Assembly: GCA_002369075.1 (NCBI GenBank)
Contig: DFEG01000010.1
Span: 2-64,001 of the forward strand
Length of the DNA stretch: 64,000 bases
Origin: Bacteroidales bacterium UBA3808
Lineage (GTDB): Bacteria; Bacteroidota; Bacteroidia; Bacteroidales; Paludibacteraceae
Direction of reading: 5' to 3'
Shown here: one piece after another, positions 20,646 to 62,642 of the stretch
Layout of the letters: every line of letters starts with the position of its first letter
Position numbering within the stretch: the first letter of the stretch is position 1
Made by a program: the position numbers and the translations under genes
The notes under the pieces: model-generated
What the model was told of the DNA's origin: nothing
Databases searched by the model: none
What the model saw: the letters and a program-made list of their open reading frames with translations, nothing else

Positions 20646-20661
20646 TTATATGTCATTTTTT
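20622..20661 (-). terminator. Intrinsic terminator just outside attL (ancestral terminator of the tRNA cluster)
   Basis: atgacatat (20632-20640) pairs with atatgtcat (20648-20656). An A10 run on the plus strand gives a U-run on the minus-strand transcript. Confidence 0.7.
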
Positions 20662-20691
20662 GTGCGCAGGATGAGACTCGAACTCACACGA
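20660..20691. repeat. attL: 32-bp copy of the 3' end of tRNA-Leu(GAG), a direct repeat of 62611-62642
   Basis: ttgtgcgcaggatgagactcgaactcacacga is identical at both sites. Only the tRNA 3' portion is present here. Confidence 0.9.
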
Positions 20692-20773
20692 AATCTGAGT
20701 TGGAATCCCATTTTTCTCCCTGACTATCAATCAGTTAGTTAGCAATTTCAAGTATCATTTTACGTTAGGACGG

Positions 20774-20797
20774 TTTGGGCAGATTTTGGGTCATTTC
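20774..20797. repeat. Island-end repeat TTTGGGCAGATTTTGGGTC(A)ATTTC (candidate integrase arm site, left)
   Basis: The 19-bp core is identical to 62550-62568, with flanking ATTTC also shared. Same orientation at both ends. Confidence 0.8.
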
Positions 20798-20817
20798 CTT
20801 TCCATCCAAATCGACTG

Positions 20818-20849
20818 CAAAGGTACATAAAATATTTAACATGTGCAAA
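20818..20849 (-). promoter_or_regulatory. Consensus promoter on the minus strand pointing out of the island's left end
   Basis: Reverse complement TACCTTTG at 20818-20825 and TTTG at 20846-20849, 20-nt spacer. No ORF lies before attL. Confidence 0.55.
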
Positions 20850-21003
20850 TTTTGGGGCATAAAAATGCAAACTTAGCACGATTTTGTTAATTTTCGTATA
20901 CTTTTCGTCTTCTCTCCATGATCGAAAGCGTTCCAACGGTTTGAATACCATTTTACCAGGTTCGCAAAATTCACACACGCGCGCATATGTATTTTAAAAG
21001 GAG

Positions 21004-21585
21004 TTATTGCCCGGCATCCTCTAAATCTTTCTTGATTTTTGGTTCAAGAATTTTCTTCTGATACTTCTTATGTATCTTGGCGCGTGCCTTTGCCTCACGT
21101 TTCTGCTTCTCGGTAAGGTTGGTATATACTTGCGTTTCCCCTACACTTTGCATATATGGAACTATCAAGTTGAACTCTGGTAGCGGCTCTAACTCACCAA
21201 TAGCCTCCGGATGATTCTGAATATATTTCAACCGGCTCTCCAGTTCTGCCACACGATGCTTTAACTGCTCCAGCATGTACTTGTTGGCGTCATCCAATAA
21301 TTGCGAAGCATTGATGGTGGTCTCTTGATATTGGATTAGCTTCTTCAGATAGCCATTCTCCATATCTGTCTCCGTCGCGTAATCAATCGGTTGACGCGTA
21401 CGCACAAACAGGGAGTCGATAGTTACATTAAAGAAGTCTGCAACCTTCTCTATTGTCGAGGCCGTAGGATTCTTATAAAGGTTATGCAAACTACTGTTGG
21501 GTTTACCGGTCACAGCCATAGATAAGTCTCGCTGTGACTTCTTCTGTTTGGCTAATAAAAGCCTGATTGCATCTCCGTCGTACAT
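21004..21585 (-). CDS. XRE-family HTH regulator (cI-like) with a C-terminal coiled coil
   Basis: KKSQRDLSMAVTGKPNSSLHNLYKNPTASTIEKVADFFNVTIDSLF is an HTH_3 motif. ATG at 21585. Confidence 0.75.
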   Translation of the reverse strand: MYDGDAIRLLLAKQKKSQRDLSMAVTGKPNSSLHNLYKNPTASTIEKVADFFNVTIDSLFVRTRQPIDYATETDMENGYLKKLIQYQETTINASQLLDDANKYMLEQLKHRVAELESRLKYIQNHPEAIGELEPLPEFNLIVPYMQSVGETQVYTNLTEKQKREAKARAKIHKKYQKKILEPKIKKDLEDAGQ

Positions 21586-21603
21586 AGGTTTTTGTTTCAA
21601 AAA

Positions 21604-21760
21604 GTAATTATAGTGCGCATCTGCGTATTATAATTACTAAAATGCTATAATAATACGCATTTAATGTTAAATTCGTTGGGTATGTCACCGAAAAGCACTA
21701 ATTTTGCACCACAAAAGTACAACAAAAATTGCAAATACGCAAATATAATACGCAAATTTT
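21604..21760. promoter_or_regulatory. Divergent promoter/operator region of the island switch
   Basis: Inverted repeat gtaattata/tataattac (21604-21612 and 21629-21637). ATACGCA occurs four times (21623-29 reverse, 21653-59, 21735-41, 21748-54). -7 TAATTTTG at 21699-21706 (+); the minus-strand -7 is at 21712-21719 with its -33 at 21740-21743. Confidence 0.6.
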
Positions 21761-21807
21761 GTATAAAATTAGCATTTTTAAGCCAAATAAACTAAAAACC
21801 AACCTAT

Positions 21808-22050
21808 ATGAAAACCTTTAAACGTTATTATCTTCAATTGACCGGCAGTCGGAGACGCCAGTTCAAACGTGTAGTCATGCAGCGTACAGGATGGAGTAAT
21901 TCCACTTTCTATTACAAGTGCGAGCATGCGAATGTAACCAAGTTGGAGGACGAGGTTATCAACCAAATCCTGAATCACTATCGTAACGAGGATCGTGCGC
22001 AGCAGCGGTTCGTCGAAAAGTACTATGCAAAGCAACACCTTAATTCTTAA
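21808..22050 (+). CDS. Small basic protein, possible HTH/excisionase-like factor
   Basis: 80 aa. VMQRTGWSNSTFYYKC resembles the HTH of AlpA/Xis-type proteins, a weak call by eye. It is the first gene of the rightward operon. Confidence 0.35.
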   Translation: MKTFKRYYLQLTGSRRRQFKRVVMQRTGWSNSTFYYKCEHANVTKLEDEVINQILNHYRNEDRAQQRFVEKYYAKQHLNS

Positions 22051-25384: not shown

Positions 25385-25575
25385 CATTAACATCGTAAAC
25401 ATTGTACACATCGCTTATTATCAGCACTTTACACGCATAGACCAAGTAAACATCCGTTAACATTTGTAAACATTGTTAACATTTTATAAGAATATTAACA
25501 TTGTTAACGATATGTTATTTTGCTTAAATGCCTGTAAATCAATGTTGTGTACGCTGTTAACGATGTGAACGTCAA
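25385..25575. repeat. AT-rich cluster of GTAAACA / AACATTGTTAAC iteron-like motifs
   Basis: gtaaacattgt, gtaaacatccgttaacatttgtaaacattgttaacatt, attaacattgttaacga and ctgttaacgatgtgaacg. AACATTGTTAAC occurs at 25470 and 25497. Confidence 0.75.
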
Positions 25576-25925
25576 AATGTATGTGTCCTATATCCATTTT
25601 GTTTTTCTATGGTGCTCGCGGCGCGGAAACGGGCAAGGTTACCACGTTGATCTTGCCCTCTACATGCTGACACACGTGCTGTTCTCTTGTGGCTTTCCCG
25701 AAAGCGGCAGATGGTTCACTCCATAGGAAGTTCATGCTTTGCTGCTGACGTGCTTGTCCTGCTGATTCTATTTCCGGCGCGAAGTTACTACTTTCTTTCG
25801 ATAAGCAAGGCTATACAAGTCGCCTCGAAAAATCTCCACACGCTGACGGTAGTATTTGTCGGTCGAGTCTTGCAACCAATCTCACTAAAGCACTTCGAAT
25901 GCACCGTAAATAAAATTCAGCAATT

Positions 25926-26247: not shown

Positions 26248-26811
26248 ATGAACTACAGAGAACCATTAACGAAGAACGAAATCCGCGAGCACGCTGCACA
26301 CTATGAGAACAGCAACCCGGCAGTCTATTGTGGCACCTATGCCAAGTACAACAACGGCAGTCTCTACGGCATGTGGATTGATTTGTCCACCTTTGAGAAC
26401 TACCACGATTTTATGGAGTTTTGCAACCGCTTGCACGCCAACGAAGCCGAGCCGGAACTCATGTTCCAAGATTACGAGCACTACCCGGAGCAGTGGTATT
26501 GCGAGGGCTGCATGGGCGAAAGCACGTTTGATAAAATCAAGGCTTATGCCGAGCTGAGCGAGGAAAAGCGTGAAGCATACGAAGCGTATCTTACCTATTG
26601 GGATGAGGGCACGCTCGAAGATTTCGAGGAGCGCTACGAGGGCAAGTACGAGAGCGCAGAAGATTTCGCCGAGTACCTGTGCGAGGAATGCGGCTATTTT
26701 AAGAACTTGCCGCAGTGGCTGCAATGCTGCATTGATTATTCGGCAGTATGGCGCAACCTTGATACCGGTGGCGATTACACGGAGGTCGATGGTCACATCT
26801 TCCGGAATTGA
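26248..26811 (+). CDS. ardA: Antirestriction protein ArdA
   Basis: VYCGTYAKYNNGSLYGMWIDLSTFENYHDFMEFCNRLHANEAEPELMFQDYE is the typical ArdA N-terminus, followed by an acidic C-terminal region. Confidence 0.8.
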   Translation: MNYREPLTKNEIREHAAHYENSNPAVYCGTYAKYNNGSLYGMWIDLSTFENYHDFMEFCNRLHANEAEPELMFQDYEHYPEQWYCEGCMGESTFDKIKAYAELSEEKREAYEAYLTYWDEGTLEDFEERYEGKYESAEDFAEYLCEECGYFKNLPQWLQCCIDYSAVWRNLDTGGDYTEVDGHIFRN

Positions 26812-26966: not shown

Positions 26967-28313
26967 ATGATAGAGACAAACCGCATAGAATTTAAGCGCG
27001 AGTTGACTCGCGAATTGGACATCGAAAAGGAAGTTGTAGCCTTCCTAAACTATCGTGAAGGTGGCATTATTTACATTGGTGTAGATGATAGTGGCAAGCC
27101 TGTTGATATTAAGGATATTGATGGCGATATGCTTGCTATCAAGAACCGTATTCGCGACGGAATCCTGCCAACTCCGATGGGACTCTTTGACGTAACAGTA
27201 GAACGTATAGATGAGAAACCCGTCATTAAAGTTTTCGTTTCTAGCGGAACTGAGAAACCGTATTACAAAAAGCAATACGGTCTCTCTCCAAAAGGATGTT
27301 TCATCCGTATTGGCACAGCGGCGGAACCAATGACGCAAGAGCAGATTGACGACCTCTATACACACCGCGTGCATAACTCGTTAAAGAATGTAGTATCGCC
27401 ACGTCAAGATCTCTCGTTTGCCCAACTACGCATTTACTATGCAGAGAAAGGAATGCAACTGAATGATAATTTCCTTCGTTCGTTGGATCTGCTTACGGAT
27501 GATGGCAAACTCAACTACGTAGCATACTTGTTGGCAGACGAGAATGGTAACTCCATGAAGTTGGCTAAATATGCAGGAACAGACCGATACGAACTTATTT
27601 CCAACAACGAATATGGCTACTGCTGCTTGCTGACCGCTACACAAAAGGTATTGGATAAATTGGATGTAGAGAACAAGGTATCTTCAGTTATTACTCCGAC
27701 TCGTCGTATAGACACTCCGCAATGGGACAGGCTGGCTATCCGCGAAGCTGTTATCAATGCTATCGTGCATAATGATTACATATATGGCGCGCCTTCGAAG
27801 ATTGAACTATTCTCTGACCATTTGGAGATAACATCCATCGGACGCATTCCACAAGGTCTTTCGCGTGAAGACTTCTTCAATGGAGTAAGCCTACCGCGCA
27901 ATCGTGAATTGATGCGTGTCTTCCGTGATGTAGAAATGGTTGAGTCGCTTGGATCAGGAATGCAACGTATCATGCGTAAATATACCAAAGACAACTTTGA
28001 GTTTGGCGATAATTATGTCCGCATGATTGTGCAATATAATTGGGTTGATGAAGTTCAAAAAGTAACGGTAACGGAAAGAGTAACGGAAAGAGTAACGGAA
28101 AGAGTAACGGAAAGCAATGAAGATAAGATTCTGCGTTTAATTTCTGCGAATCCTACAATAACCATTCCAAGAATGATGGATGTGTTATCACTCTCAGATA
28201 GCGGAATACGTAAAATTATACGCAAACTCCAGCAACAAGGGCTTCTTCGTCGCGTAGATGGTCGGAAAGAAGGTCATTGGGAGATAATCATTCCGGAGAA
28301 TAATAAAGACTAA
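26967..28313 (+). CDS. AlbA_2 (Schlafen-like) + HATPase_c_4 + C-terminal wHTH protein (RecG-like putative DNA-binding ATPase family)
   Basis: ETNRIEFKRELTRELDIEKEVVAFLNYREGGIIYIGVDDSG, AIREAVINAIVHNDY, and the C-terminal ILRLISANPTITIPRMMDVLSLS. Confidence 0.8.
   Translation: MIETNRIEFKRELTRELDIEKEVVAFLNYREGGIIYIGVDDSGKPVDIKDIDGDMLAIKNRIRDGILPTPMGLFDVTVERIDEKPVIKVFVSSGTEKPYYKKQYGLSPKGCFIRIGTAAEPMTQEQIDDLYTHRVHNSLKNVVSPRQDLSFAQLRIYYAEKGMQLNDNFLRSLDLLTDDGKLNYVAYLLADENGNSMKLAKYAGTDRYELISNNEYGYCCLLTATQKVLDKLDVENKVSSVITPTRRIDTPQWDRLAIREAVINAIVHNDYIYGAPSKIELFSDHLEITSIGRIPQGLSREDFFNGVSLPRNRELMRVFRDVEMVESLGSGMQRIMRKYTKDNFEFGDNYVRMIVQYNWVDEVQKVTVTERVTERVTERVTESNEDKILRLISANPTITIPRMMDVLSLSDSGIRKIIRKLQQQGLLRRVDGRKEGHWEIIIPENNKD
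28062..28115 (+). repeat. In-frame 12-bp tandem repeat (GTAACGGAAAGA, encoding VTER) x4
   Basis: The protein reads VTVTERVTERVTERVTES. It lies between the ATPase-like domain and the wHTH. Confidence 0.95.
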
Positions 28314-28431: not shown

Positions 28432-30300
28432 ATGGAAGTCAATATTAAGAAAGCCGTGAAAATGTTCTTCTCAAGCTCATCGTTTGAGATGATATACTTT
28501 GAGGCAATTGCTAATGCGTTAGATGCAGGGGCTTCAGCTATTGATATCAAAATTCAAGGAACACGAGATAATAATAAAACGATTCAATTGCAGAATCTAT
28601 CCTTGGAGATCCAGGACAATGGCGTGGGAATCGATGAACCTCGTTATGATAAATTCAGTAAGTTATTTGATGTTGAGGAACAAAGTCATAAAGGACTTGG
28701 TCGATTGGTGTATTTGTGCTATTTCGATGAGGTTCGTGTGGAGAGCGTCTTTAGGAATACCAATCATCGTTCTTTCGTCTTCTCTGAATCCTTCCAGAAA
28801 AGTATGGGCGAAACAATCGAGCCGTGTGAGCATCAAGAGAACGGCACAACTTTCCGAATGACTCATTTCTCGGGGGAGAAATTGCATAACAATGAATTTG
28901 TGCGTCCTACATATCTCAAGAGAGCTATACTAGATTGTTTTTATCCTCGTCTTTATAAAGAAAAAATTGCTGGCAAAGATATCTCCATTAATATCACTGC
29001 TGTATTCGATGGGATAACCAAATCCGAGATTATTCGAACGTCTGATATACCGAACTTCAAGGAATATCCCTTGGAATACCCTATGGGGTTGTTCACCTCC
29101 ATTGACATGTATTATTCAATCAAGGAAGTACCGGCGGAAGAAGCGCATATCATCACTGGAATTGTGGTTGATGATAGAACAATCCCGATTGAGGTCATCG
29201 ATCCTGAGAATCAACCGGCAGACTATGAAATGATATTTCTGTTAATCGTGAAATCTCATGATGAAAGTCTTGTCAATGCGTCTCGTCAGGCTCTGAATCT
29301 TACCAATACAGACTTGGGGAGTATTAAGACGACATTCCGCGAAGCGATAGCAGATATTATTAATAGAGATGTTCCCAAGGTTGTTGAGGCAAATAAGGCA
29401 AGTCAAGAATATCTATGTAGAGTATATCCTCATTTGCAGGGCTATTTCGATACCAAAGCTATCGGATATGCCTCTCGCAATGATGTCCTTAAGAAAGCTC
29501 AAGACAGATTCTTCAATGACCAAAAAGAAATTCTTGGCGCCTCCTCTACATTAACAGAAGAGCAATTCCAAAAGACATTAGCACTCTCCGCACGTTCGCT
29601 GGCTGAATATATATTATTCCGTCAACGGATTATTGAGAGAATGAAAAGCCTTTCTCCGGACAATTCAGAATATGATCTTCATAATTTAATTGCGCCACGA
29701 TTTAATGAATTTAAAGAGGAGAATTTATCGGATGACTTATATGTCAATAATGTATGGATTCTGGATGATAAGTTCATGAGTTATTCGACTGTGTTGAGTG
29801 ACAAAGAAATGTCGGATGTGATATCTATTCTTACCAACGGTGAAGCATCTCAAGAATCTGAAAATGGTCGACCGGATATTGCTTTATTCTTCTCAGGGAA
29901 TCCGGCTGACAAAGATACAAAAGTGGACGTAGTTATTGTCGAACTGAAGAAGAAGGGTATTGATTCGGGACGAATTTCCGTAGTGGAAACGCAGTTGGAG
30001 GAACGTGCACGCAGTCTGTATAAGTATTACAACAAGCGCATTCAACGGATATGGTATTATGGAGTGGTGGAATGTATAGATGAGTATATTCTGCATTTAA
30101 AAACCAATAAGTATAAACCTTTATTCTCAAAAGGAAAAGTTTTCTATAACGAGAAGGAAGTGGCTGTAGATGTTAATACGGACGAAGTGGTTATTGCTAA
30201 TACATTTATCATGGATATTGATGCAATGGCGAACGATGCAGCTGCCAGAAATGAAACATTCCTCAAAATTTTAAGGCGGCAATTTGCAAACAACGACTAA
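28432..30300 (+). CDS. GHKL (MORC/HATPase_c_3-like) ATPase with a C-terminal PD-(D/E)xK nuclease-like motif
   Basis: The Bergerat motifs EAIANALDAGAS, QDNGVGI and HKGLGRL. The C-terminal motif is GRPDIALF...VDVVIVELKKKG (PD at 29872-77, ELK at 29941-49). Confidence 0.7.
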   Translation: MEVNIKKAVKMFFSSSSFEMIYFEAIANALDAGASAIDIKIQGTRDNNKTIQLQNLSLEIQDNGVGIDEPRYDKFSKLFDVEEQSHKGLGRLVYLCYFDEVRVESVFRNTNHRSFVFSESFQKSMGETIEPCEHQENGTTFRMTHFSGEKLHNNEFVRPTYLKRAILDCFYPRLYKEKIAGKDISINITAVFDGITKSEIIRTSDIPNFKEYPLEYPMGLFTSIDMYYSIKEVPAEEAHIITGIVVDDRTIPIEVIDPENQPADYEMIFLLIVKSHDESLVNASRQALNLTNTDLGSIKTTFREAIADIINRDVPKVVEANKASQEYLCRVYPHLQGYFDTKAIGYASRNDVLKKAQDRFFNDQKEILGASSTLTEEQFQKTLALSARSLAEYILFRQRIIERMKSLSPDNSEYDLHNLIAPRFNEFKEENLSDDLYVNNVWILDDKFMSYSTVLSDKEMSDVISILTNGEASQESENGRPDIALFFSGNPADKDTKVDVVIVELKKKGIDSGRISVVETQLEERARSLYKYYNKRIQRIWYYGVVECIDEYILHLKTNKYKPLFSKGKVFYNEKEVAVDVNTDEVVIANTFIMDIDAMANDAAARNETFLKILRRQFANND

Positions 30301-30307
30301 GAAAAAG

Positions 30308-49805: not shown

Positions 49806-49837
49806 TATATTGTCTAACCCTCAAAAATTATTGAACT

Positions 49838-50994: not shown

Positions 50995-50997
50995 CTT

Positions 50998-51914: not shown

Positions 51915-51959
51915 CTTTCCTAAAATTTTCTGCTTAAACACTTACATTCTGCAAATAAA

Positions 51960-51991
51960 TTTGCACATGTCAATTTTTTTTTGTACCTTTG
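51960..51991 (+). promoter_or_regulatory. Promoter (TTTG, 20 nt, TACCTTTG) of the PARG-like/NUDIX operon
   Basis: -33 at 51960-51963 and -7 at 51984-51991. Confidence 0.6.
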
Positions 51992-52020
51992 CGCCGATAA
52001 CGACGCAAACAAACAGAAAC

Positions 52021-53303: not shown

Positions 53304-53307
53304 AGAT

Positions 53308-53628
53308 ATGATAGTTACTACCACACCCACCATTGAGGGTCACACCATTAAGGAGTACAAAGGTCTTGTTTCCGGAGAGGTTATCTTCGGCATGAACTTC
53401 CTGAAGGACTTTGGCGCGTCGCTTCGTGATTTCTTCGGAGGACGTACCGACAGTTATGAAAAAGCTATGCTCGAAGGACGCGAGACCGCGCAGAAAGAGA
53501 TGCGCGAGCGCGCTGAGAAACTGGGTGCCAATGCCATCGTGGGTGTTAGCTTTGGCTATGAGACGATGGGTCAAGCCAACAGTATGATTATGATCTCCAT
53601 CAGCGGCACAGCCGTTGTGATTGACTAA
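53308..53628 (+). CDS. YbjQ/UPF0145 family protein
   Basis: TTTPTIEGHTIKEYKGLVSGEVI...FFGGR...GANAIVGV. Confidence 0.85.
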   Translation: MIVTTTPTIEGHTIKEYKGLVSGEVIFGMNFLKDFGASLRDFFGGRTDSYEKAMLEGRETAQKEMRERAEKLGANAIVGVSFGYETMGQANSMIMISISGTAVVID

Positions 53629-53834
53629 TGAAGTTAGAGGAAGCGATAACATATGCCATCATGTCGGATGGTCATGGAAAGACGACTGACCAGATAGCCG
53701 CCGCTATCAACCGCAATGGTTGGCACATCCGCAAGGACGGCAAGCCCGTCACGAGTGCACAGGTCTATGCCTGTATTTGCCGTTATCCTTCCATCTTCAC
53801 TAAAGAGGCAGGCAGAATCTGCGTGATGTTATAG
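53628..53834 (+). CDS. Small hypothetical protein (possible winged-helix)
   Basis: 68-aa ORF overlapping the ybjQ-like stop codon. Confidence 0.4.
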   Translation: MKLEEAITYAIMSDGHGKTTDQIAAAINRNGWHIRKDGKPVTSAQVYACICRYPSIFTKEAGRICVML

Positions 53835-53837
53835 AAT

Positions 53838-54455
53838 ATGAATATGACTTTCGAACAGATATATAATCAGATGCAGTGGACGCGTGAGCCCGCGAGAGTA
53901 GAAGAGAAAGACGGTGTGATTGCCGTCACCACTAAACCGCATACCGATCTCTGGCAGCGGACGTACTACCACTTCAGGAATGACAATGCGCCAGTTTTGC
54001 AGATGAGGACAAGTGAGCGGTTCTTTTCGTTTGTCGTCAAGACCGACTTTTCGCAGAGCCACCATCGGTTCGACCAGTGCGGTATTGTGATGTACCTCGA
54101 CAGCGAGAACTGGCTCAAAGCGTCTGTGGAGTACGAGAACGAGCAGTTCCAACATCTCGGTTCGGTCGTTACCAACGGCGGCTACTCGGATTGGGCTACT
54201 ACCGCTATCCCTGCGGATGTAAAAACGATGTGGTACCGTTTCTCGCGACGGGAGGACGATTATTGCATCGAGAGTTCTACGGACGGCGTACATTTCAGCC
54301 AGATGCGCATCTGCCACATGCACTTAGGTATAGGAGAAATACGTTTCGGTATCTATGCCTGTTCGCCGGAAGAATCGTCGTTCACGGCTTTGTTCTCAGA
54401 TATGCAAATCACCGCCTGCGCATGGCATGCCCATGACGGACAGCAACCGGATTAG
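53838..54455 (+). CDS. DUF1349 (Ren1-like, concanavalin-fold) protein
   Basis: WTREPARVEEKDGVIAVTTKPHTDLWQRTYYHFRNDNAP...FDQCGIVMYLDSENWLKASVEYE. Confidence 0.7.
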   Translation: MNMTFEQIYNQMQWTREPARVEEKDGVIAVTTKPHTDLWQRTYYHFRNDNAPVLQMRTSERFFSFVVKTDFSQSHHRFDQCGIVMYLDSENWLKASVEYENEQFQHLGSVVTNGGYSDWATTAIPADVKTMWYRFSRREDDYCIESSTDGVHFSQMRICHMHLGIGEIRFGIYACSPEESSFTALFSDMQITACAWHAHDGQQPD

Positions 54456-54502
54456 ATTTGATATAACTTTTAAAATAAAATGGATAAGTTAAAAGAACTG
54501 AT

Positions 54503-55045
54503 ATGATAGACCAGATTATTGATTTTAACAAGACATTCGTGGCGCAGAAGGGCTATGAGAAGTATGTGACCGACAAGTATCCCGACAAGAAATTAGCCGT
54601 TCTGACGTGCATGGACACGCGTCTGACGGAGTTGCTTCCGGCGGCACTTGGATTGAAGAACGGCGATGCTAAGATTATTAAGAATGCCGGCGGGCTGATC
54701 ATTACGCCCTTTGATTCGGCGATGCGCAGTCTCATTGTGGCCATCTACGAATTAGGCGTGGAGGAAATCATGGTAGTAGCGCACAGCCAATGCGGAGCGT
54801 GTCACATGAGTTACAGTCATTTCCACCACGTCATGAAAGCGCGCGGCATAAAAGACGAGACACTCGATACCATCCGCGAATGCGGCATTGACCTCAACCA
54901 CTGGCTCGAAGGTTTCCGCGACACAGAGACATCCGTTCGCAAGACCGTCAAGACCATTCAGACCCATCCGCTCATTCCCAAGGATATCACCGTCCGCGGT
55001 TTTATCATCGACTCCGTTACCGGCGCATTGGAGGAGATTAACTAA
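54503..55045 (+). CDS. Beta-class carbonic anhydrase-like protein
   Basis: LTCMDTRL, IIKNAGG and VVAHSQCGA motifs. Confidence 0.7.
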   Translation: MIDQIIDFNKTFVAQKGYEKYVTDKYPDKKLAVLTCMDTRLTELLPAALGLKNGDAKIIKNAGGLIITPFDSAMRSLIVAIYELGVEEIMVVAHSQCGACHMSYSHFHHVMKARGIKDETLDTIRECGIDLNHWLEGFRDTETSVRKTVKTIQTHPLIPKDITVRGFIIDSVTGALEEIN

Positions 55046-55524
55046 TGGCTCAGAAGATACAGAAAACGAATGTGTGTCGGCTGCTGGATGCCGCAGGGAT
55101 TGCATATGAACTGATTGAGTATGCCGTAGATGAGTCGGACTTGAGCGCAACGCATGTGGCGGAACAGTTAGGCGAAGATGTGGATGCCGTATTCAAGACC
55201 ATCGTGCTGGAGGGCGACAAAACCAAGCATTTTGTATGTGTCGTGCCGGGTGCGTGTGAGGTGGACTTGAAAAAAGCGGCTCGTGCCAGCGGCAATAAGT
55301 CCTGCAAACCGATTCCGCAGAAGGAACTGCTGCCGCTCACAGGTTATATTCGTGGCGGTTGTTGCCCGATAGGAATGAAGAAACCATTCCCGTCGTACAT
55401 CGACGAGACTTGTCTGCTGCATGAGAAGATATATGTCTCTGCCGGACAGCGCGGCATGCAACTCCGCCTCGCTCCGCAAGACCTAATTAAATACGTACCA
55501 TTAGAAATTAGTGATTTGATATAG
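55045..55524 (+). CDS. ybaK: Cys-tRNA(Pro)/Cys-tRNA(Cys) deacylase YbaK
   Basis: TNVCRLLDAAGIAYELIEY...KTIVLEGDKTKHFVCVVPG...TGYIRGGCCPIGMKK. Confidence 0.8.
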   Translation: MAQKIQKTNVCRLLDAAGIAYELIEYAVDESDLSATHVAEQLGEDVDAVFKTIVLEGDKTKHFVCVVPGACEVDLKKAARASGNKSCKPIPQKELLPLTGYIRGGCCPIGMKKPFPSYIDETCLLHEKIYVSAGQRGMQLRLAPQDLIKYVPLEISDLI

Positions 55525-55525
55525 T

Positions 55526-56020
55526 ATGCATCGTACCATCCGACTTGCGACATACGAAGACATCCCTGCTATCATGCCGGTAATAGATGCAGCGCGGGAG
55601 ATGATGCACGCTTCGGGTAACGTGAACCAATGGATAAACGGTTATCCGTCGGAGGATGTTATCCAAGCGGACATTGCTCGTGAAGGCGGCTTTGTGGTCA
55701 CAGATGACGAGCGGATAGTGGCATACTTTGCCTTTCTCCCTGCACCGGAACCGACTTATGCGCAAATTTATGAAGGTGCATGGTTGAACGACGAACCATA
55801 CTATGTCATCCATCGTTTGGCAAGTTGGCCGGAAGTACATGGGATATGGGATTGCGTGCTCAAGTGGGCTTTTGAACGGACACATACGCTTCGCGTAGAT
55901 ACCCATCGAGACAACCGTATTATGCAGCACAACATCCTCAAGCACGGGTTTACCTATTGCGGAATCATTTATTTACTTTCAGGCGACGAACGCCTGGCAT
56001 ACCAAAAGACGAGAATATGA
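55526..56020 (+). CDS. GNAT family N-acetyltransferase
   Basis: 164 aa; IRLATYEDIPAIMPVIDAAR... with a GNAT-like core. Confidence 0.6.
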   Translation: MHRTIRLATYEDIPAIMPVIDAAREMMHASGNVNQWINGYPSEDVIQADIAREGGFVVTDDERIVAYFAFLPAPEPTYAQIYEGAWLNDEPYYVIHRLASWPEVHGIWDCVLKWAFERTHTLRVDTHRDNRIMQHNILKHGFTYCGIIYLLSGDERLAYQKTRI

Positions 56021-56820
56021 AAAAGTTATTTCCTTATATCCTTGGGGCGATATTTGTGCTGATCATCATCGGCGCATGGATGTTGATTGCGCACTTGGTC
56101 AAGAAACCGAACGATACGCAAGTACCGTTTGTGGTAGCACATAACTATTTCGTGCGGAACGATGCAATCGAACCTATTCCGGCAAAGATTGTTTCGCTGG
56201 ACGAGTTTGAACAGTATTTTGGTATGGCAGCCTTCATGGGTAAGAACGGACAACCGACACCTATTGATTTTGAGAAGCAGTTTGCTATAGCTGTTGTGCT
56301 ACCGGAAACTAATCATAGCACCGAACTATATGCAGCGAGCCTGACGGATGACGGAAAGAAGCTGATATTTACCTATCGCGTCGATGTCGCTCCCAAAGAA
56401 AACACTTGGACTCAAATGCCGATGTTGCTCATCTTCGTTGACCGCCAATACGAACGTAATAGTGTGGAACTACAATCTAATGTGGTGACGGACATCTCAG
56501 GCACTTGGCAGGTACGAGCTTTTGACAACATAATGCTTACAGAAGACTCCGTATCATTCCCGACGATTAGTTTGTTGGAGAACGGAGTGATAACCGCTTC
56601 GGCAGGTTGTAATGGCATGGGTGGTAATTACCAATATGCCAATGGGCGACTCATCATCAAGGACGGAATGTGCCAGACAGAGAAGTGGTGTGAGAATGAA
56701 CAGATGATGCGCAACGAACGATTGCTGGCGCAGACTTTGCATGACACGTTAGCCGTAACGGCTTTATCCGCAGACTCCGTGCTTGTGCAAGGCACGCACA
56801 CGATGATAATTGTTAGATAA
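56017..56820 (+). CDS. META (HslJ-like) domain-containing membrane-anchored protein
   Basis: TM helix MKKLFPYILGAIFVLIIIGAWML. SAGCNGMGGNYQYANGRLIIKDGMCQTEKWC is META-like. Confidence 0.55.
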   Translation: MKKLFPYILGAIFVLIIIGAWMLIAHLVKKPNDTQVPFVVAHNYFVRNDAIEPIPAKIVSLDEFEQYFGMAAFMGKNGQPTPIDFEKQFAIAVVLPETNHSTELYAASLTDDGKKLIFTYRVDVAPKENTWTQMPMLLIFVDRQYERNSVELQSNVVTDISGTWQVRAFDNIMLTEDSVSFPTISLLENGVITASAGCNGMGGNYQYANGRLIIKDGMCQTEKWCENEQMMRNERLLAQTLHDTLAVTALSADSVLVQGTHTMIIVR

Positions 56821-56858
56821 GAAAAACTAATTGGAATCATTATAAAATATTCAGTATT

Positions 56859-57050
56859 ATGGCACACGCATGTGAAAATTGTAAGTTTCGTGCACACTAC
56901 GATGCAAAACCTAACTCTGCGTTAGGTCGTTTCTGGAGATGGCACATCAATTTCTGTCCTGGATGGAAGGCGTACTATACCTCCCGTTCGGCAGAAGAGC
57001 AAAAGCAATTACGCGAGAAATATAACTTTACCAAATATCAAGGCAGCTAA
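56859..57050 (+). CDS. Small Cys-containing hypothetical protein
   Basis: 63 aa; MAHACENCKFRAHYDAKPNSALGRFWRWHINFCPGWKAYY. Confidence 0.5.
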   Translation: MAHACENCKFRAHYDAKPNSALGRFWRWHINFCPGWKAYYTSRSAEEQKQLREKYNFTKYQGS

Positions 57051-57064
57051 GGGAATAGACCATA

Positions 57065-57592
57065 ATGGAAAAATTTGAAGAACAGATACATGGCGACTTA
57101 CAGCAGTACTTGCTGAGCGTGAATGAGATAGACGAGCGTATGCCTGAGTGCCCCGATGTGGAGGGCAAATGGGAGGCGATAGCGAATGCGTATATCCCTG
57201 ACGGAGTGCGTGAGTTTCAGAATTATCCGCTCGCGTCGCTCGGGTGGATGATGTATATCGGCATGGCATTGGCGAAGATGTGGGATGACGATTGGCAGTA
57301 CTATGCTGCGAAAGACGACCTGTATGACTATCTGCGTGACAAACGCGGCTACGATGCCATGGACGAGTATATCCGCAGAGACGTACTCAAACTCAAAGGC
57401 AAGGATTTTGCGATGACCGAAGAACTCGTCAGCGAGTGTGCCTCGCGAGTGCATAACACGTTGATGCATCAGGACATCGAACCGGGTACGAAAGAGGCTT
57501 TCCTTGCCTACGTCGCTTGCTTGCATCAGTTGTTCCTCTTTGGCGCAGCTGTACAACTCAAGCGCATGGGCTACCACATGACGAGAATATAA
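57065..57592 (+). CDS. Hypothetical protein
   Basis: 175-aa ORF. No recognisable motif. Confidence 0.5.
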   Translation: MEKFEEQIHGDLQQYLLSVNEIDERMPECPDVEGKWEAIANAYIPDGVREFQNYPLASLGWMMYIGMALAKMWDDDWQYYAAKDDLYDYLRDKRGYDAMDEYIRRDVLKLKGKDFAMTEELVSECASRVHNTLMHQDIEPGTKEAFLAYVACLHQLFLFGAAVQLKRMGYHMTRI

Positions 57593-57609
57593 AATATAGT
57601 GATTATACT

Positions 57610-58101
57610 ATGACACGCAAAGAAACAATCATAGCAACGATCTTGCTAATCATTTTCGGAACGAGTATGCACTTCGTGCATCATGTACCGTTCTTCAATC
57701 ATTTCCTGGGCTATATCTTTCCCGTGACGGAGAGTGTGATGGCGCACATGAAGATGGTGTTTTACCCGATGCTTTTACTGAGCATCTATCTGTGCATTTT
57801 GCACCGCGACATCCGCGAGATAGGCGCACCTATATTGGGCGCATTGGCCGTTATGCCGCTCATCGTAGCCGCATTCTTCAGTTATTGGTTCTTCGTGCGC
57901 CATGAGTTGATGCTTTTGGATATCGTTATCTATATCGCTTCGATGGTCGGCGCAGTACATCTTGCTAATCGTTGGCGGACATGTGCTGTTGTGCAACGCC
58001 TCTGGCCGTTATGGATAGTGCTCATCGTGCTGGCTATCATTGCTATCGGCGTGTTGACCTATCACGCACCTAACTGGATCATCTTCGCAGATTTAGGATA
58101 A
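57610..58101 (+). CDS. Integral membrane protein (DUF6512-like)
   Basis: Five or six hydrophobic helices. Start taken at ATG 57610. Confidence 0.45.
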   Translation: MTRKETIIATILLIIFGTSMHFVHHVPFFNHFLGYIFPVTESVMAHMKMVFYPMLLLSIYLCILHRDIREIGAPILGALAVMPLIVAAFFSYWFFVRHELMLLDIVIYIASMVGAVHLANRWRTCAVVQRLWPLWIVLIVLAIIAIGVLTYHAPNWIIFADLG

Positions 58102-58179
58102 TATGAACTGAAGTATGACACCCAAACTATTCTTACAAGCAACGCGTTCGTTATAAAGTAATTCCGTTTATTTGGTAAT

Positions 58180-58593
58180 ATGAACACCTTTCAAAAGATA
58201 TTAACTTTGTTCATAGGCATCGGCGCAGTAGTCGGTGCGGTAATGATGTGGGTTGACCCGACGGGAGTTGCATGGGGCGGAGAACCATTATTAGAATTGC
58301 TCCGCGCAAAGATGCCGTGGCCGGATGTGTTCTTTCGCAACTTTATTCCGTCCGGTATAGTACTATTGGCGGTAAACGGTCTTACGCAATTCGTAGCAGC
58401 TTATCTGCTTTTCAAAAACCATCCGCTGGCATATTGGGCAGTACTGGTTTGCGGTATTATCCTGATGCTTTGGATTGCGCTCGAATGTTGGATATGGGGC
58501 TTCAATCCTGTCGGTAATTTTTACTTCATCCTTGGCCTCGTCGAAACCATTTCAGCAGCAATTAGTTTGCATGGAAACAGATATTTAAAATAA
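58180..58593 (+). CDS. Integral membrane protein
   Basis: 137 aa with four hydrophobic helices. Confidence 0.5.
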   Translation: MNTFQKILTLFIGIGAVVGAVMMWVDPTGVAWGGEPLLELLRAKMPWPDVFFRNFIPSGIVLLAVNGLTQFVAAYLLFKNHPLAYWAVLVCGIILMLWIALECWIWGFNPVGNFYFILGLVETISAAISLHGNRYLK

Positions 58594-58609
58594 TGTCCGT
58601 TTTTTCACA

Positions 58610-59104
58610 GTGCATGTTCTCTCCGACTGCATCACCAGCTATGATCTAAGGAAGCTACCAGATATGCTCTCCTATTACGAGAGCAAAGGTTGTGAGGTCA
58701 AAACGCTTGCCGATTACAAACAATGAAACAAAGGTATGTGCTATAGAGAAGAAGCCATCGAATGTGTAAAAGATCATGTTCTCCAGATACATAAGCAAAT
58801 ATATGCCAAGTATGAAGGGGATTTTGACAGGATCTATACGGAAGGGTACAACAGCAAGTCCTATACGGGTAGGGTGATTGAAGCAGGAAAGGTTTATGAA
58901 CTGAGTTATCTGGAATGTACGTGCCCTAAAGTTAAATGTGGGCTGAGAAACCATCCGCAACAATGTGAGTGCTCGCGACAGAGCATTCTATATATCTTGT
59001 CGCAGCTGGAACCGGATAGCCAATTCGAAGTTCGGATTGAGAATACGATTCTCAGGGGAAGCGACCGCTGTACTTTCAGAATAACAAAGCATAAAGATGT
59101 TTAA
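58610..59104 (+). pseudogene. Cys-rich protein (C-terminus resembles the ATC-hydrolase family) interrupted by one in-frame TGA
   Basis: The frame is open from about 58580, with TGA at 58724-58726 in the same frame as ORF 58736-59104. The tail reads ...GSDRCTFRITK. Confidence 0.35.
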
Positions 59105-59116
59105 GTCATTCGAGTT

Positions 59117-59809
59117 ATGACAATAGATAGAATAGATATTACCGCTCAACTATTTGCTTTGCAAGACAAGGCGTATGCGGATTTCCAGAGCAAGTTACTG
59201 CCGACTGTCAAACGCAAGACGGTTATTGGTGTGCGGACACCGAACTTGCGCAAAATGGCGAAGCAAATCTGCAAGACTCCTGCTGCGCAAGAGTTCTTGC
59301 ACAGTTTGCCTCATCGCTATTTTGACGAGAACCAATTGCACGCGTTTATCCTGTCGGAAGAGAAAGATTTCAACATCTGTATCGCTAATCTAGAGCAGTT
59401 CCTGCCGTATGTAGATAACTGGGCGACCTGCGACCAACTATCGCCTCGTTGCTTCAAGAAACATACGATGGAGTTATTACCGTACGTTCGCAAGTGGATG
59501 AGGAGCAAACACACCTATACGAAACGCTTTGGAATATGCACGCTGATGCGTTATTTTTGGGACGAGGCTTTTCGACCGGAATACTTGGAATGGGTTGCAT
59601 CTATCAAGTCTGATGAGTATTACATCCGCATGATGCAGGCATGGTTCTTTGCTACGGCGCTTGCCAAACAATGGGATGCCACGCTTCCCTATATACAGCA
59701 ACAGCGTATGGAGAAAGAAACACACAACAAAACCATCCAGAAAGCCGTTGAGAGTTTCCGTATCGCGGACGAACAAAAGGCTTTGCTAAAGACCCTGCGA
59801 GTGAAATGA
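59117..59809 (+). CDS. DNA alkylation repair protein (AlkD-like HEAT repeat)
   Basis: LQDKAYADFQSKLLPTVKRKTVIGVRTPNLRKMAK...NWATCDQL. Confidence 0.7.
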   Translation: MTIDRIDITAQLFALQDKAYADFQSKLLPTVKRKTVIGVRTPNLRKMAKQICKTPAAQEFLHSLPHRYFDENQLHAFILSEEKDFNICIANLEQFLPYVDNWATCDQLSPRCFKKHTMELLPYVRKWMRSKHTYTKRFGICTLMRYFWDEAFRPEYLEWVASIKSDEYYIRMMQAWFFATALAKQWDATLPYIQQQRMEKETHNKTIQKAVESFRIADEQKALLKTLRVK

Positions 59810-60396
59810 AAAAGATTCTATTCCTACATGGCTTTTACGCAAGCGGACAATGTGTTCCGGCAATTGCGTTACTCGAAGCATTCGCAGGGCGTGCCGATGT
59901 GCTGACACCGGACTTGCCCATGCATCCGCAGGACGCGCTATGTTTCATTCGCGAACTAATAGATAGCGAGAAGCCCGACTTGCTGATAGGGAACAGTTGT
60001 GGCGCTTTCTATGCGCAGATGAATGCTCCTGTTGTGGACATTCCTGCTTTGCTTGGTAATCCGCATTTTCGAATGTCAGAGTTCCTAAAGCAGCGCATAG
60101 GTCAGCACGAGTATAAATCGCCGCGCAAGGATGGCAAGCAATCATTCGTTATAGATGAAGCCTTGGTTGAAGAGTTTGCTGCACTGGAGGCAACTCAATT
60201 CGACAATTGCAATCCTCAGTCCCGTGACCAAGTGTGGGGATTATTCGGTGAGCAAGACACTTTAGCGCATTTCGAATCGCTCTTCTTAGAGCACTACAAC
60301 CGTTCATTCCATTTCCCCGGAGGACATACTCCCACCGCCGATGAAGTCCGTACATGGTACGTACCGCTGGCAGAGAAGATGTTAATAGAACAATAA
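59806..60396 (+). CDS. YqiA/UPF0227-like alpha/beta hydrolase (esterase)
   Basis: ILFLHGFYASG...LIGNSCGAFYA contains the nucleophile elbow GxSxG. Confidence 0.55.
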   Translation: MKKILFLHGFYASGQCVPAIALLEAFAGRADVLTPDLPMHPQDALCFIRELIDSEKPDLLIGNSCGAFYAQMNAPVVDIPALLGNPHFRMSEFLKQRIGQHEYKSPRKDGKQSFVIDEALVEEFAALEATQFDNCNPQSRDQVWGLFGEQDTLAHFESLFLEHYNRSFHFPGGHTPTADEVRTWYVPLAEKMLIEQ

Positions 60397-60509
60397 CACA
60401 CAAACGAGGTGTGAGGCGTTTGCTGTTTATTATCTAAATCACTTTGACGGTTCCCGTTTCCGTCGCTACCGCGCTTTTCGTGATGAAACGTGCGGTAGTT
60501 TTGTTTATG

Positions 60510-60805
60510 TAAGACCATAAAGGCGCGTGAGCGCAAGCAGACTTTTGAGGTGCGCGGAGCGATTGGAGACTTGCGGTTTGAGTATGCGCACGGAGACTTT
60601 TGGGGTTAACGGAATTGATGAAGACTCACATGGTCTGCGCGTAAAAGGAGACTTGTAAAGTCGCATAAAGTGAAGACCTTTGATGTGTAAAAAAAAGAGA
60701 CTCTTAATGTCGTTGCTACGAGCAGACTTTTGAAAATGTTTACACGTGCAGACTTCGGCACTTTTGAAATAATGGAGACCTTTGCTTTGAGGGCGAGAGC
60801 GTCCT
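60510..60805. repeat. Degenerate tandem array, about 11 units of 24-28 bp, each starting (G/A)(G/C/A)AGAC(T/C)TTTG-like
   Basis: AGAC cores end at 60517, 60542, 60570, 60597, 60625, 60652, 60677, 60701, 60727, 60753 and 60779. Confidence 0.85.
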
Positions 60806-61109
60806 AATTTAGAAATTTGCGTTTGCATATTCCGCTTTGAAAGACTCGCTAAAATCAGCCGATATAGCAGGGCGGTTGGGGCTCTCCAGAGGGAAAAGAC
60901 GAAAGATTTTGCTATCTTTCGTCGCTATCTGGCTTATTTACAGCATTTTACGATTTCATAGACCGGACAAATAGCGAAAACCGGAACAAAATGAGCACTA
61001 AAAAGTAGGCTCAGCCCTTGTAAATACTTGTTGTTCCTCGGTTCTTTGAAATAGCGAAAAACGAGTGTTTTTCAGAAAAATTGTAGAAATACGAAACCGT
61101 ATTAAACAA

Positions 61110-61200
61110 TTATACCACGCTTTTCTGGCGTCAGACCTATATTTTACACGAACGCTCACCGTGTTCGTTTGGTCTAATCGTCCTAAAAAGCGTGGTATAA
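61110..61200. repeat. Nested inverted repeat (15-bp outer arms) just beyond the integrase stop codon
   Basis: ttataccacgctttt (61110-24) pairs with aaaagcgtggtataa (61186-200). The inner pairs are cagacc/ggtct and acgaac/gttcgt. Confidence 0.8.
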
Positions 61201-61210
61201 CTATGCAAAT

Positions 61211-62449
61211 TTAGAACTCCGGAGCTATCTTATTGATACGTTCAATAAGGCTCTCATCAATGTGATTGGCGTAGCGGAAAGTCATACTAAGGTCGCTGTG
61301 GCCAACTATTTGAACGACGTCCAAATCGGTTGCACCAGCTTTCAATAGGTTGTTAATTCCGCTATCACGGAGAGAGTAGAGTTGATATTCTCTCGGCAAC
61401 TTCAATGCTGCTCTCATTCGATCCCAAATGATAGTGAATGAGTGCGAAGCAGCAGGAGTCTGGCTCGGTTTCCATGTGCCGGCGCCAAAGACGAAATCAT
61501 CCGGTTGGGCTCCACGAATATGGTCACGTAATAAGGCTTCCAATTTATCATCCATACGACAGTTATGGTCTTTGCCGTTTTTCTTCTGCGATCCTTTCAT
61601 TTCGATACAATGTTTCTCGAAGTTCAGTTGTTCAACTTTGACGCGAGTAATCTCTACCGGACGCAGGAAGGATTTATACACCAGTTGCATGACGATGATG
61701 AATGCAGGATTCTTTTCCCTAAAGTATGCAACAATTCTGTCGCGAACTTCCTTGGGGATAATGGTACGATCTTTACCCTGCGCTTTCTTTTGTTTGAGGT
61801 GTTCAAACGGATTGACACGGGCGTAACTCTTTTCCATCGCCCAACTAAACAACGCACGCGCGAGCTTTATATTATTGTTGTACGTACGCGGACTTACGCG
61901 ATCTTCCCTTATTTTCTTGCGGACAGACTTCTTGCCTTTCGAGTTGTTGCCAAGAAGCACGAACTCCATGTACTGGTTCGCCTGCGTCTGCGAGAAAACG
62001 GAAGCGGCAATAGATGGACAGTTATTATGCACCCATTGCTTGAATTGTTTACAGAAGCAACTATAGCTTCGCATAGTCGTTTCTTTCAACTCACCACATC
62101 GATCTTTTTCATACAGGTCAATTACCTGCTCCAACGGAGTGTAAAAGCGAACATTATCACCCGTATAACTCTCCTGCGTACCGATTCCGTAGGCAGGGAT
62201 GTTTTGCTGAAGATTGATAAAACCGGCAGCAAGTTGATTGTTGATTTGAAGAATAATAGCGCTGGTCTGCAATTTGAACTCAGTAAGAGTCTTGCAGCGC
62301 TTACGCTCGCGGTTCATCATCAGACGAACGCGCTCTAAGTCTTGAACGATAGGGTTAAGCTTGTAGTACTCGATGTACCAACCTTTAGAATTGTGTTTGA
62401 GCTCTGCGGGAACAAATTGCCTTAGGGCTCCAAAATTTTGAACCAACAT
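61211..62449 (-). CDS. int: Tyrosine-type site-specific integrase
   Basis: C-terminal catalytic pattern ...LYSLRDSGINNLL...IVGHSDLSMTFRYANH. It lies adjacent to the tRNA 3' end. Start taken at the internal ATG (62449) of ORF 61211-62524. Confidence 0.9.
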   Translation of the reverse strand: MLVQNFGALRQFVPAELKHNSKGWYIEYYKLNPIVQDLERVRLMMNRERKRCKTLTEFKLQTSAIILQINNQLAAGFINLQQNIPAYGIGTQESYTGDNVRFYTPLEQVIDLYEKDRCGELKETTMRSYSCFCKQFKQWVHNNCPSIAASVFSQTQANQYMEFVLLGNNSKGKKSVRKKIREDRVSPRTYNNNIKLARALFSWAMEKSYARVNPFEHLKQKKAQGKDRTIIPKEVRDRIVAYFREKNPAFIIVMQLVYKSFLRPVEITRVKVEQLNFEKHCIEMKGSQKKNGKDHNCRMDDKLEALLRDHIRGAQPDDFVFGAGTWKPSQTPAASHSFTIIWDRMRAALKLPREYQLYSLRDSGINNLLKAGATDLDVVQIVGHSDLSMTFRYANHIDESLIERINKIAPEF

Positions 62450-62549
62450 AGTAATTTTTTTTTCTTCCGCCAACCTTTTCTGATTGGCGGGAGAAAAAAA
62501 GTTAAACAATGTTATTAACGACAAATGACTTCCACATCTGTGAAAGTCA

Positions 62550-62574
62550 TTTGGGCAGATTTTGGGTCGATTTC
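62550..62574. repeat. Island-end repeat TTTGGGCAGATTTTGGGTC(G)ATTTC (candidate integrase arm site, right)
   Basis: Matches 20774-20797. It lies between int and attR. Confidence 0.8.
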
Positions 62575-62610
62575 TACGCGTCTCACGCGTAACTTATTGA
62601 TTTTCAACCC

Positions 62611-62642
62611 TTGTGCGCAGGATGAGACTCGAACTCACACGA
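62611..62642. repeat. attR: 32-bp direct repeat covering the 3' end of the intact tRNA-Leu(GAG)
   Basis: Identical to 20660-20691. Confidence 0.9.

Follow-up and report, generated by a model that had tools for sequence, protein, structure and literature searches.

Organization of the island and its attachment sites

The 64,000-nucleotide stretch analysed here (the window; contig DFEG01000010.1) belongs to the metagenome-assembled genome (MAG) of an uncultured rumen Bacteroidales of the Paludibacteraceae (labelled G000; 1.8 Mb, 48 contigs, 78% complete) and carries a genomic island of 41,951 bp, measured between two copies of a tRNA-derived direct repeat. From left to right the island holds a repressor and replication module, an ArdA gene, defence and other cargo genes, an accessory block, a periodic array and a tyrosine integrase gene (int) next to the right repeat (Table 1). 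Labels of the form G003 or G082 denote genomes of other species of the same genus; the set of relatives contains one genome per species, and comparisons run between species. Genomes in the lineage measure 1.3-3.4 Mb, and the hosts of the element family are uncultured Paludibacteraceae from ruminant and pig guts.

Table 1 Features of the island and its borders (window positions; nt and aa mark nucleotide and amino acid identity; ORF, open reading frame; HTH, helix-turn-helix; PLD, phospholipase D)
Feature	Position	Strand	Evidence or remark
Native intrinsic terminator of the tRNA-Gly/Leu/Leu operon	20622..20659	-	outside the island; abuts tRNA-Leu(GAG) in empty sites of G003, G005, G072, G070, G172 and others
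attL core	20660..20691	+	isolated 3' 30 nt of tRNA-Leu(GAG) plus two T's; 32/32 match to 62611-62642
19-bp motif TTTGGGCAGATTTTGGGTC, int-distal arm	20774..20792	+	identical copy at 62550-62568
Cro/C1-type HTH repressor, 198 aa	21004..21600	-	PHROG transcriptional regulator/repressor E 4e-10; Pfam HTH_26; 100% aa identity in G082
Small conserved ORF, 80 aa, heading the replication operon	21808..22050	+	27-100% aa upstream of the primase in G082, G043, G063, G094, G070
Pri-Rep fusion, 1065 aa	22112..25309	+	DnaG-type primase (aa 1-430) and Cch/SaPI-Rep-like P-loop initiator helicase (aa ~460-1050; predicted fold)
Iteron cluster, about a dozen GT(T/A)AACAT repeats, AT-rich	25389..25580	.	directly 3' of Pri-Rep; Tandem Repeats Finder arrays of period 9/10/19
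Conserved ORF, 99 aa	25926..26225	+	upstream of ArdA
ArdA anti-restriction protein	26248..26811	+	Pfam ArdA E 1e-27; PHROG anti-restriction; 91-97% aa identity in G082, G063
Schlafen/AlbA_2-HATPase_c_4-wHTH protein	26967..28313	+	Pfam; homologues 64-80% nt in many genomes of the genus
Defence cargo, 5 genes	28432..44853	+	Pfam and PADLOC
GHKL ATPase, 622 aa	within 28432..44853	+	Pfam
SNF2 DrmD-like helicase, 943 aa	within 28432..44853	+	PADLOC DrmD 2e-97
Type IIG/DrmMI-like methyltransferase, 1650 aa	within 28432..44853	+	PADLOC REase_MTase_IIG E=0 (best), DrmMI 9e-57
TIR protein PDC-S35, 256 aa	within 28432..44853	+	PADLOC PDC-S35 2e-78
DruE/DrmA + DUF1998 (MZB) helicase, 2002 aa	within 28432..44853	+	PADLOC DruE 6e-100
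Further cargo	44872..51660	+	Pfam, PADLOC; genes in the next three lines
Two uncharacterised proteins, 325 and 321 aa	within 44872..51660	+	
NT5C nucleotidase, then uncharacterised 256-aa protein	within 44872..51660	+	
AAA+ ATPase (IetA-like), vWA-like protein (235 aa), dual-specificity phosphatase, DUF1287	within 44872..51660	+	
Accessory block	51880..60396	+	Pfam; 85-99% nt beside the same integrase in G004, G082, G003, RUG372, RUG14494, RGIG4295
PARG, NUDIX, YbjQ, DUF1349, beta-carbonic anhydrase, YbaK, weak GNAT, META, DUF6512	within 51880..60396	+	
Small uncharacterised ORFs, AlkD-like, YqiA-like esterase	within 51880..60396	+	
Periodic array, 11 RRAGACYTTTGARGT sites, 24-28-bp period	60510..60805	.	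downstream of int
Tyrosine integrase, 412 aa	61211..62449	-	Pfam Phage_integrase E 1e-14; PDB XerC-like match 1e-6
19-bp motif TTTGGGCAGATTTTGGGTC, int-proximal arm	62550..62568	+	identical copy at 20774-20792
attR core	62611..62642	+	inside the intact tRNA-Leu(GAG) gene 62613-62697 (-)

The 32-mer TTGTGCGCAGGATGAGACTCGAACTCACACGA forms both att cores, on the plus strand, in direct orientation and with 0 mismatches. No third copy was found in the window at up to 7 mismatches (chance expectation 0), and the entire 1.8-Mb assembly contains these two only. The tRNA-Leu(GAG) gene around the right copy was called by both ARAGORN and Rfam and is followed by tRNA-Leu(CAG), tRNA-Gly(GCC) and a 16S rRNA gene from 63693. 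The repeat consists of the 3' 30 nt of this tRNA and two T's, which comparison with relatives assigns to a chromosomal T-run at attL and to the element arm at attR; because the T's differ in origin, the tRNA-derived duplication itself amounts to 30 bp.

With the two flanks joined as a query against 200 species of the genus, the match was unbroken across the predicted junction in G003, G005, G072, G201 and G211. The order at the empty site of these five sister species is DUF2147 gene, terminator hairpin and tRNA-Leu(GAG), and in G072 the DNA left of the tRNA is nearly base-for-base equal to the attL flank of the window. In at least 11 more species the hairpin and its T-run abut the 3' end of tRNA-Leu(GAG). 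Since the site is uninterrupted in five species, all 41,951 bp between the repeats constitute an insertion. The hairpin beside attL adjoins the tRNA 3' end in the empty sites and is thus the native terminator of the tRNA operon; it does not terminate the DUF2147 gene, because it is located upstream of that gene, which probably starts near 20560 at an MKKTFF signal peptide. The insertion has moved this terminator 42 kb away from its operon.

The sequence-only reading of this DNA had described an exact direct repeat, its right copy as the 3' end of a complete tRNA-Leu(GAG), its left copy as an isolated fragment beside a minus-strand terminator outside the island, and a tyrosine integrase just inside attR, and had proposed to look for an empty site in relatives. 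All of these hold in the searches above, and the repeat is confined to two places in the assembly rather than spread over many unrelated loci. A direct repeat of a tRNA 3' end with the tRNA intact, an adjacent tyrosine integrase and an empty site are together the marks of a tRNA-integrated island. The insertion looks recent, since its cores are perfect, its integrase is intact, with the R/K/R/H/Y residues in place, and copies in other species are nearly identical; we do not take this as a sign of present activity.

Several minor observations concern the neighbourhood of the target. The terminator-like palindrome AAAATTACAAAAAAAAAATGACATATGCAAATTATATGTCATTTT (window 20612-20660) occurs in many copies per genome, 85-100% identical, across the genus, and looks like a family of terminators of the repetitive extragenic palindrome (REP) kind. 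At the empty site of G003 (C5, ~795-865), tRNA-Leu(GAG) is missing its 5' ~23 nt and was not called by ARAGORN, beside an intact tRNA-Leu(CAG). The Gly-Leu-Leu tRNA cluster and the island behind it are inverted relative to the DUF2147/Ham1 genes in G004 (C23, 18981-19563) and G023 (C24), so that the tRNA and DUF2147 promoters are divergent there. Upstream of the tRNA cluster and of the 16S gene, two stretches (window 62911-63011 and 63381-63460) match many loci in all genomes; they were considered as a mobile repeat, which was dropped in view of Bacteroidota TTTG/TAnnTTTG motifs, read by eye, that suggest stable-RNA promoters.

Two conserved ends around replaceable cargo

The left end of the island, from the att core to ArdA (window 20662-26835), is 93-96% identical in G082 and G076, where the match ends at the same core. 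Both ends are present in G082 and G091 (integrase 99%, Pri-Rep 98%), and G068 and G011 have the left module together with an 82% identical integrase. Across species, the identity of both end modules is 90-99%, compared with only 66-83% for the core DNA. The island itself has a single recombinase gene and a single pair of att cores. These observations suggest that it is best described as a single modular element with conserved ends and replaceable cargo between them, where the cargo may have a composite history.

The right end extends this picture to the accessory block. Left of the target site, G004 is colinear with window 5191-20491 and 66-83% identical to it, whereas 10.7 kb beside tRNA-Leu(GAG) match window 51967-62697 at 90-93%, with an integrase 99% identical in amino acids. 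In the remaining genomes listed for the block in Table 1, among them the pig MAG G082, it stands beside the same integrase in mosaic form, and the AlkD-like and YqiA-like genes, the repeat array and int remain linked even in the lineage with 78-82% identical integrases. The identity of the block (85-99% nt) compared with that of the core DNA (66-83%) therefore identifies its 'housekeeping-like' genes as element cargo that travels with the integrase, and not as displaced chromosome. The sequence-only reading had taken everything between the repeats as one element or a nested composite, with the housekeeping-like genes at 51-60 kb acquired along with it. The single integrase and att pair, the empty sites, the linked ends and the recurrence of these genes beside the same integrase in several other species agree with both proposals.

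Several genes of the block have further copies elsewhere in G000. The block was also considered as an integron-like cassette array, which was rejected because the spaces between its genes could not hold attC sites, being too short, and contain no repeats. In G068, a homologue of DUF1349 (80% identical to window 53797-54451) is located at C58 1557-2191, ~0.8 kb outside attL of the element; it could have been left by a neighbouring island or be a paralogue on the chromosome.

A composite origin, in which at least two unrelated insertions, or a chimeric join of variants from co-occurring species, lie between the repeats, would account for the mosaic content (the right block is common to G004, the left block to G082 and the middle is unique), for the swing in GC along the island from 39% to 55%, for the breaks of the relatives' assemblies inside their islands, and for the DUF1349 homologue just outside attL in G068. 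A tandem composite with degenerate att cores inside was looked for, and no such core was found at up to 7 mismatches. Together with the one integrase and one att pair, the absence of N runs from the window, the match of both flanks to a single chromosomal locus in five species and the presence of the same two end modules in G082, this makes a composite or assembly artefact improbable.

Integrase, arm motif, periodic array and target choice

The integrase ORF is intact, and MAGs of 8 other species encode integrases at least 99% identical to it in amino acids. The gene directly follows the tRNA operon and has the same orientation; with the terminator of the operon gone, transcription running on from the tRNA genes could express int while the element is integrated. 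At ~20818-20825, beside the 19-bp motif of the int-distal arm, a candidate TAnnTTTG promoter was read by eye on the minus strand; it would face int only once the element has circularised.

The two copies of the 19-bp motif TTTGGGCAGATTTTGGGTC share one orientation and are located inside the island, ~80 bp from attL and ~40 bp from attR. Relatives keep the motif without a single change, next to int in G003, G004 and G011 and next to attL in G076 and G082, even where the DNA around it is only 77% identical. From its position and conservation we regard it as a candidate arm-type site of the integrase, which both arms of attP would carry.

Downstream of int, AGAC[CT] cores occur 11 times in the periodic array where 0.49 are expected. 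The periodicity (26-27 bp) and the core are kept, with different spacers, in all 15 delimitable relatives, including the 78-82% integrase lineage. The region is a putative conserved protein-binding array; it seems, on weak evidence, to track the integrase lineage rather than the Pri-Rep lineage, and ORF 60505-60828, which overlaps it, is probably spurious.

Members of the integrase family are not confined to tRNA-Leu. In G003 (C11, 5097-6573), an integrase 95% identical, with the same arm, stands beside tRNA-Asp(GTC), and the tRNA part of its att is of the Asp type; the same genome simultaneously has an empty Leu site. The elements of G011 and G068, with the 82% integrase, sit at a truncated tRNA-Asp. 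The Leu and Asp targets have only GAGACTCGAACTC in common, in the T-loop region. Two different tRNA genes thus serve as targets for closely related integrases of the family. A 74% identical integrase was found on CALBPU010000067.1, a contig binned as Fretibacterium (Synergistota), which reflects either mis-binning or spread past the phylum.

A primase-helicase replication module at the left end

The left end carries a phage/PICI-type primase-helicase replication module (PICI, phage-inducible chromosomal island) that the sequence-only reading had not recognised. The repressor and the 80-aa ORF are divergent, and AATACGCA repeats in the region between them (21600-21808) are candidate operators. 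The 80-aa ORF has no match in Pfam, PHROG or NCBIfam; its place at the head of the replication operon makes it a candidate Cro/excisionase-like regulator.

The N-terminal part of Pri-Rep matches Zn_ribbon_DnaG, DNAG_N and Toprim in Pfam, and TIGR01391. Sequence searches of PDB and Pfam gave nothing for the C-terminal half, which was resolved by the fold search alone. An AlphaFold2 model, built with 19 homologues in the alignment, reached a predicted local distance difference test (pLDDT) score of 79.7. Foldseek matched this model to DnaG (2e-25) and, via the C-terminal half, to Cch of the staphylococcal cassette chromosome SCCmec (5dgk, 2.5e-8) and to Rep of the Staphylococcus aureus pathogenicity island (SaPI) SaPIbov1 (8tch, 5e-8). 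The 5dgk match has a probability of 1.0 and template-modelling (TM) scores of 0.21/0.36 over 572 columns, and TM-scores in this low range (0.2-0.36) are due to the multi-domain query. The Walker A (GPKGSGKS) and Walker B (LVHLDEF) motifs are invariant in the alignment. By this fold match the C-terminal half is predicted to be a Cch/SaPI-Rep-like initiator helicase. The iteron origin of SaPIs is located 3' of rep, and by analogy the iteron cluster directly 3' of Pri-Rep is a candidate replication origin.

Phage relatives and the route of transfer

Full-length Pri-Rep homologues with 36-44% identity were found in 80 phage contigs of IMG/VR, and 41 of these contigs measure 40-48 kb. The int, regulator and primase arrangement around these homologues is that of temperate, siphovirus-like phages; one annotated IMG/VR contig carries genes for a tape-measure protein, an integrase (-), small regulators (-), Pri-Rep (+) and a head maturation protease as well as an anti-restriction gene. 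Circularisation of the island would join int (-), attP, the HTH gene (-) and Pri-Rep (+) in the order of these related phages. Among the other island proteins, the integrase alone matched the 80 contigs, weakly (~27% aa) and in 7 of them.

The sequence-only reading had seen no capsid, terminase, type IV secretion or relaxase gene, and profile searches gave the same result. Island ORFs of at least 80 aa were screened with Pfam, PHROG and NCBIfam profiles, and none matched a virion or lysis family (capsid, terminase, portal, tail or lysis genes) or a hijack or packaging gene (terS, cpm, sid/psu/delta, capsid or other). No capsid, terminase or other phage structural gene was found anywhere in the 78%-complete assembly, and a prophage that could act as helper within G000 was sought there without success.

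The Pri-Rep, the HTH repressor and the integrase are phage-like, and the island is about as large as the related phages, as would be expected if a ~44-kb temperate phage had lost its structural genes by deletions and cargo insertions and were now a fixed remnant. Such a decayed prophage should be weighed against the zero remnants of structural or lysis genes, the perfect att cores and the intact int ORF, and above all against the finding that several species have both end modules, 93-99% identical and free of structural genes, which requires that this form was transferred recently. We consider it the least probable of the readings discussed here. The structural-gene-free modules are near-identical across species, and therefore the structural-gene-free form is what spreads.

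A strict phage satellite would have as its helper a temperate phage from the ~44-kb family with the Pri-Rep module, which would induce it and package it in full-size helper capsids, the satellite keeping for itself the lysogeny/replication module only, with cargo as the rest. The island resembles PICIs, SaPIs and P4-like satellites in its core set of int, repressor and primase-replicase, in the helicase fold matching SaPIbov1 Rep, in the iterons 3' of rep, and in integration with direct repeats. The length of half of the phage contigs with Pri-Rep homologues comes near the 42 kb of the island, and no conjugation machinery was found in the genus. Defence cargo is typical of satellites (PMC10085698); on the other hand, 42 kb is far beyond their range of ~7-20 kb, and P4-like satellites have a median of 10 kb with <2% at 15-22 kb (PMC10085698). 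In addition, the island has no terS, capsid-remodelling or other hijack gene that could be found, the assembly has no related prophage, capsid or terminase gene, and neither element nor integrase was found in IMG/VR. A strict satellite is thus unlikely. We hold as still more doubtful a phage-sized form, in which the lysogeny/replication module of a ~44-kb siphovirus has had its virion genes replaced by ~34 kb of cargo and 42 kb fills the helper capsid.

As to conjugation, type IV secretion and conjugation genes and a coupling protein, the hallmarks of an integrative conjugative element, were not found. A six-frame search of the G000 assembly gave no match to the relaxase families PF03432, PF03389 and PF01076 (Relaxase, MobA_MobL and Mob_Pre), to the CTnDOT TraJ or to the coupling-protein domain, and the profile search for a relaxase that the sequence-only reading had suggested for the island was likewise empty. 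A search of 121 genomes of the genus turned up no CTnDOT-type TraJ, and relaxases in 9-11 genomes, with no relaxase in the eight element-bearing genomes G003, G004, G011, G068, G076, G082, G091 and G122. The lineage of the genus thus seems largely conjugation-free, and with these counts NBU1-style or conjugative mobilisation is unlikely in it.

NBU1 of Bacteroides, from the same phylum, also targets a Leu-tRNA and carries a primase gene. An integrative mobilisable element of this type would be moved via oriT by a co-resident conjugative element, with or without a relaxase of its own; besides the Leu-tRNA target, which is common to NBU1, the ArdA gene, typical of leading regions of conjugative DNA, and the periodic array beside int, which could be a transfer or partition site, would suit it. 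In contrast to the island, NBU1 measures ~10 kb, has mobN1 and oriT and is transferred by CTnDOT-type elements, and neither a relaxase or coupling protein in the assembly nor a TraJ in the genus was found. We regard this explanation as very improbable.

It is likely, then, that the 41,951 bp are one modular integrative element, inserted by its own tyrosine integrase into the 3' end of tRNA-Leu(GAG), and the best reading is that the island integrates, can replicate itself and cannot transfer itself, much as tycheposons, PICIs or SCCmec do. Integration would have rebuilt tRNA-Leu(GAG) and left a 30-bp tRNA fragment at the far end. The HTH repressor may hold the replication operon silent, and upon de-repression the integrase would excise a circle. 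In this circle int, attP, the repressor gene and Pri-Rep would be contiguous, a lysogeny/replication module like that of the related phages, and Pri-Rep would fire at the adjacent iteron origin. ArdA would shield the DNA on entry to a new cell. As the island encodes no transfer machinery, its movement between cells must use something else; its mobility would depend on a helper, and the route would most likely be phage particles, otherwise vesicles or natural uptake.

Several points weigh against this reading. No second complete copy of the element was recovered, as every relative breaks at a contig end; for this reason, the description as one element relies on the conserved ends and the single att pair, and a chimeric assembly of the cargo in the 78%-complete MAG is possible. 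Exact and gapped attP junction patterns had 0 matches in assembled metagenome and viral contig collections, which is weak evidence because assemblers seldom retain minority circular junctions. IMG/VR contains no close relative of the integrase and no Pri-Rep of >44% identity. The assignments of origin, operators, arm sites and promoter rest on position and repetition, and a helper prophage or a conjugative element could be among the unassembled part of the MAG.

Relationship to known systems

The closest analogues in architecture and context are the tycheposons of Prochlorococcus, which have a tRNA-targeting tyrosine recombinase, partial-tRNA repeats, a primase/helicase, regulators and variable cargo, and lack genes for capsids and conjugation (Hackl et al., bioRxiv 10.1101/2020.12.28.424599). 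The island has this architecture, and the match is one of architecture alone. Hosts with small genomes and without conjugation are common to both. The differences are the other phylum and habitat, the larger size of the island, its cargo, mainly of anti-phage defence and small accessory genes, and its Pri-Rep, a DnaG-Cch fusion.

SCCmec likewise is a cargo island of large size, tens of kb; it encodes a self-loading helicase of the Cch type (5dgk fold) and no transfer genes of its own, and it integrates site-specifically where a conserved gene has its 3' end. It uses the serine recombinases ccrAB and the rlmH site, whereas the only recombinase of the island is of the tyrosine type and its target is a tRNA; the SCCmec helicase is unfused to a DnaG primase, and the host phylum is another. 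Taken together, the island is a genomic island of an ordinary kind; its family, which has a replication module of the PICI/SCC type, had not been described before.

The island is one of the few fully assembled examples of its family with both att sites and both chromosomal flanks, and it exemplifies the movement of large defence clusters and of small accessory genes within a small-genome lineage in which no conjugation genes were found. It offers defined parts, namely the att core, the 19-bp arm motif, Pri-Rep with its iterons and the putative 26-27-bp periodic binding array. The near-identical integrases at tRNA-Leu and tRNA-Asp are a natural case of target change by tRNA-targeting integrases. 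If the island were a phage-sized satellite, elements of this kind would be the chief carriers of defence systems from species to species within the genus and a gut-Bacteroidota counterpart of tycheposons, and their integrases, 95-99% identical in amino acids, would retarget between tRNA-Leu and tRNA-Asp via the shared 13-bp T-loop core.

Defence and other cargo in the middle of the island

The five genes at 28432-44853 are predicted, from their profile matches, to be a DISARM class-1/Druantia-like cluster without a PLD gene. The likeness to these systems consists in the DrmD-like SNF2 protein, the DrmMI-like N6-adenine methyltransferase and the DUF1998/MZB helicase. The full set of DISARM class 1 is not present: PLD (DrmC) was not found by Pfam or PADLOC, and DrmA and DrmB are fused in the 2002-aa DruE-like protein. 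Further differences are the embedded GHKL ATPase and TIR protein (PDC-S35), and the methyltransferase, whose best PADLOC match is a type IIG REase-MTase. A search of 120 genomes of the genus did not find the middle cargo (28.4-45.8 kb) in any of them. Just to its left, the 3' part of the Schlafen/AlbA-HATPase_c_4 gene contains a perfect 12-nt tandem repeat, GTAACGGAAAGA, in 3.9 copies at window 28068-28114.

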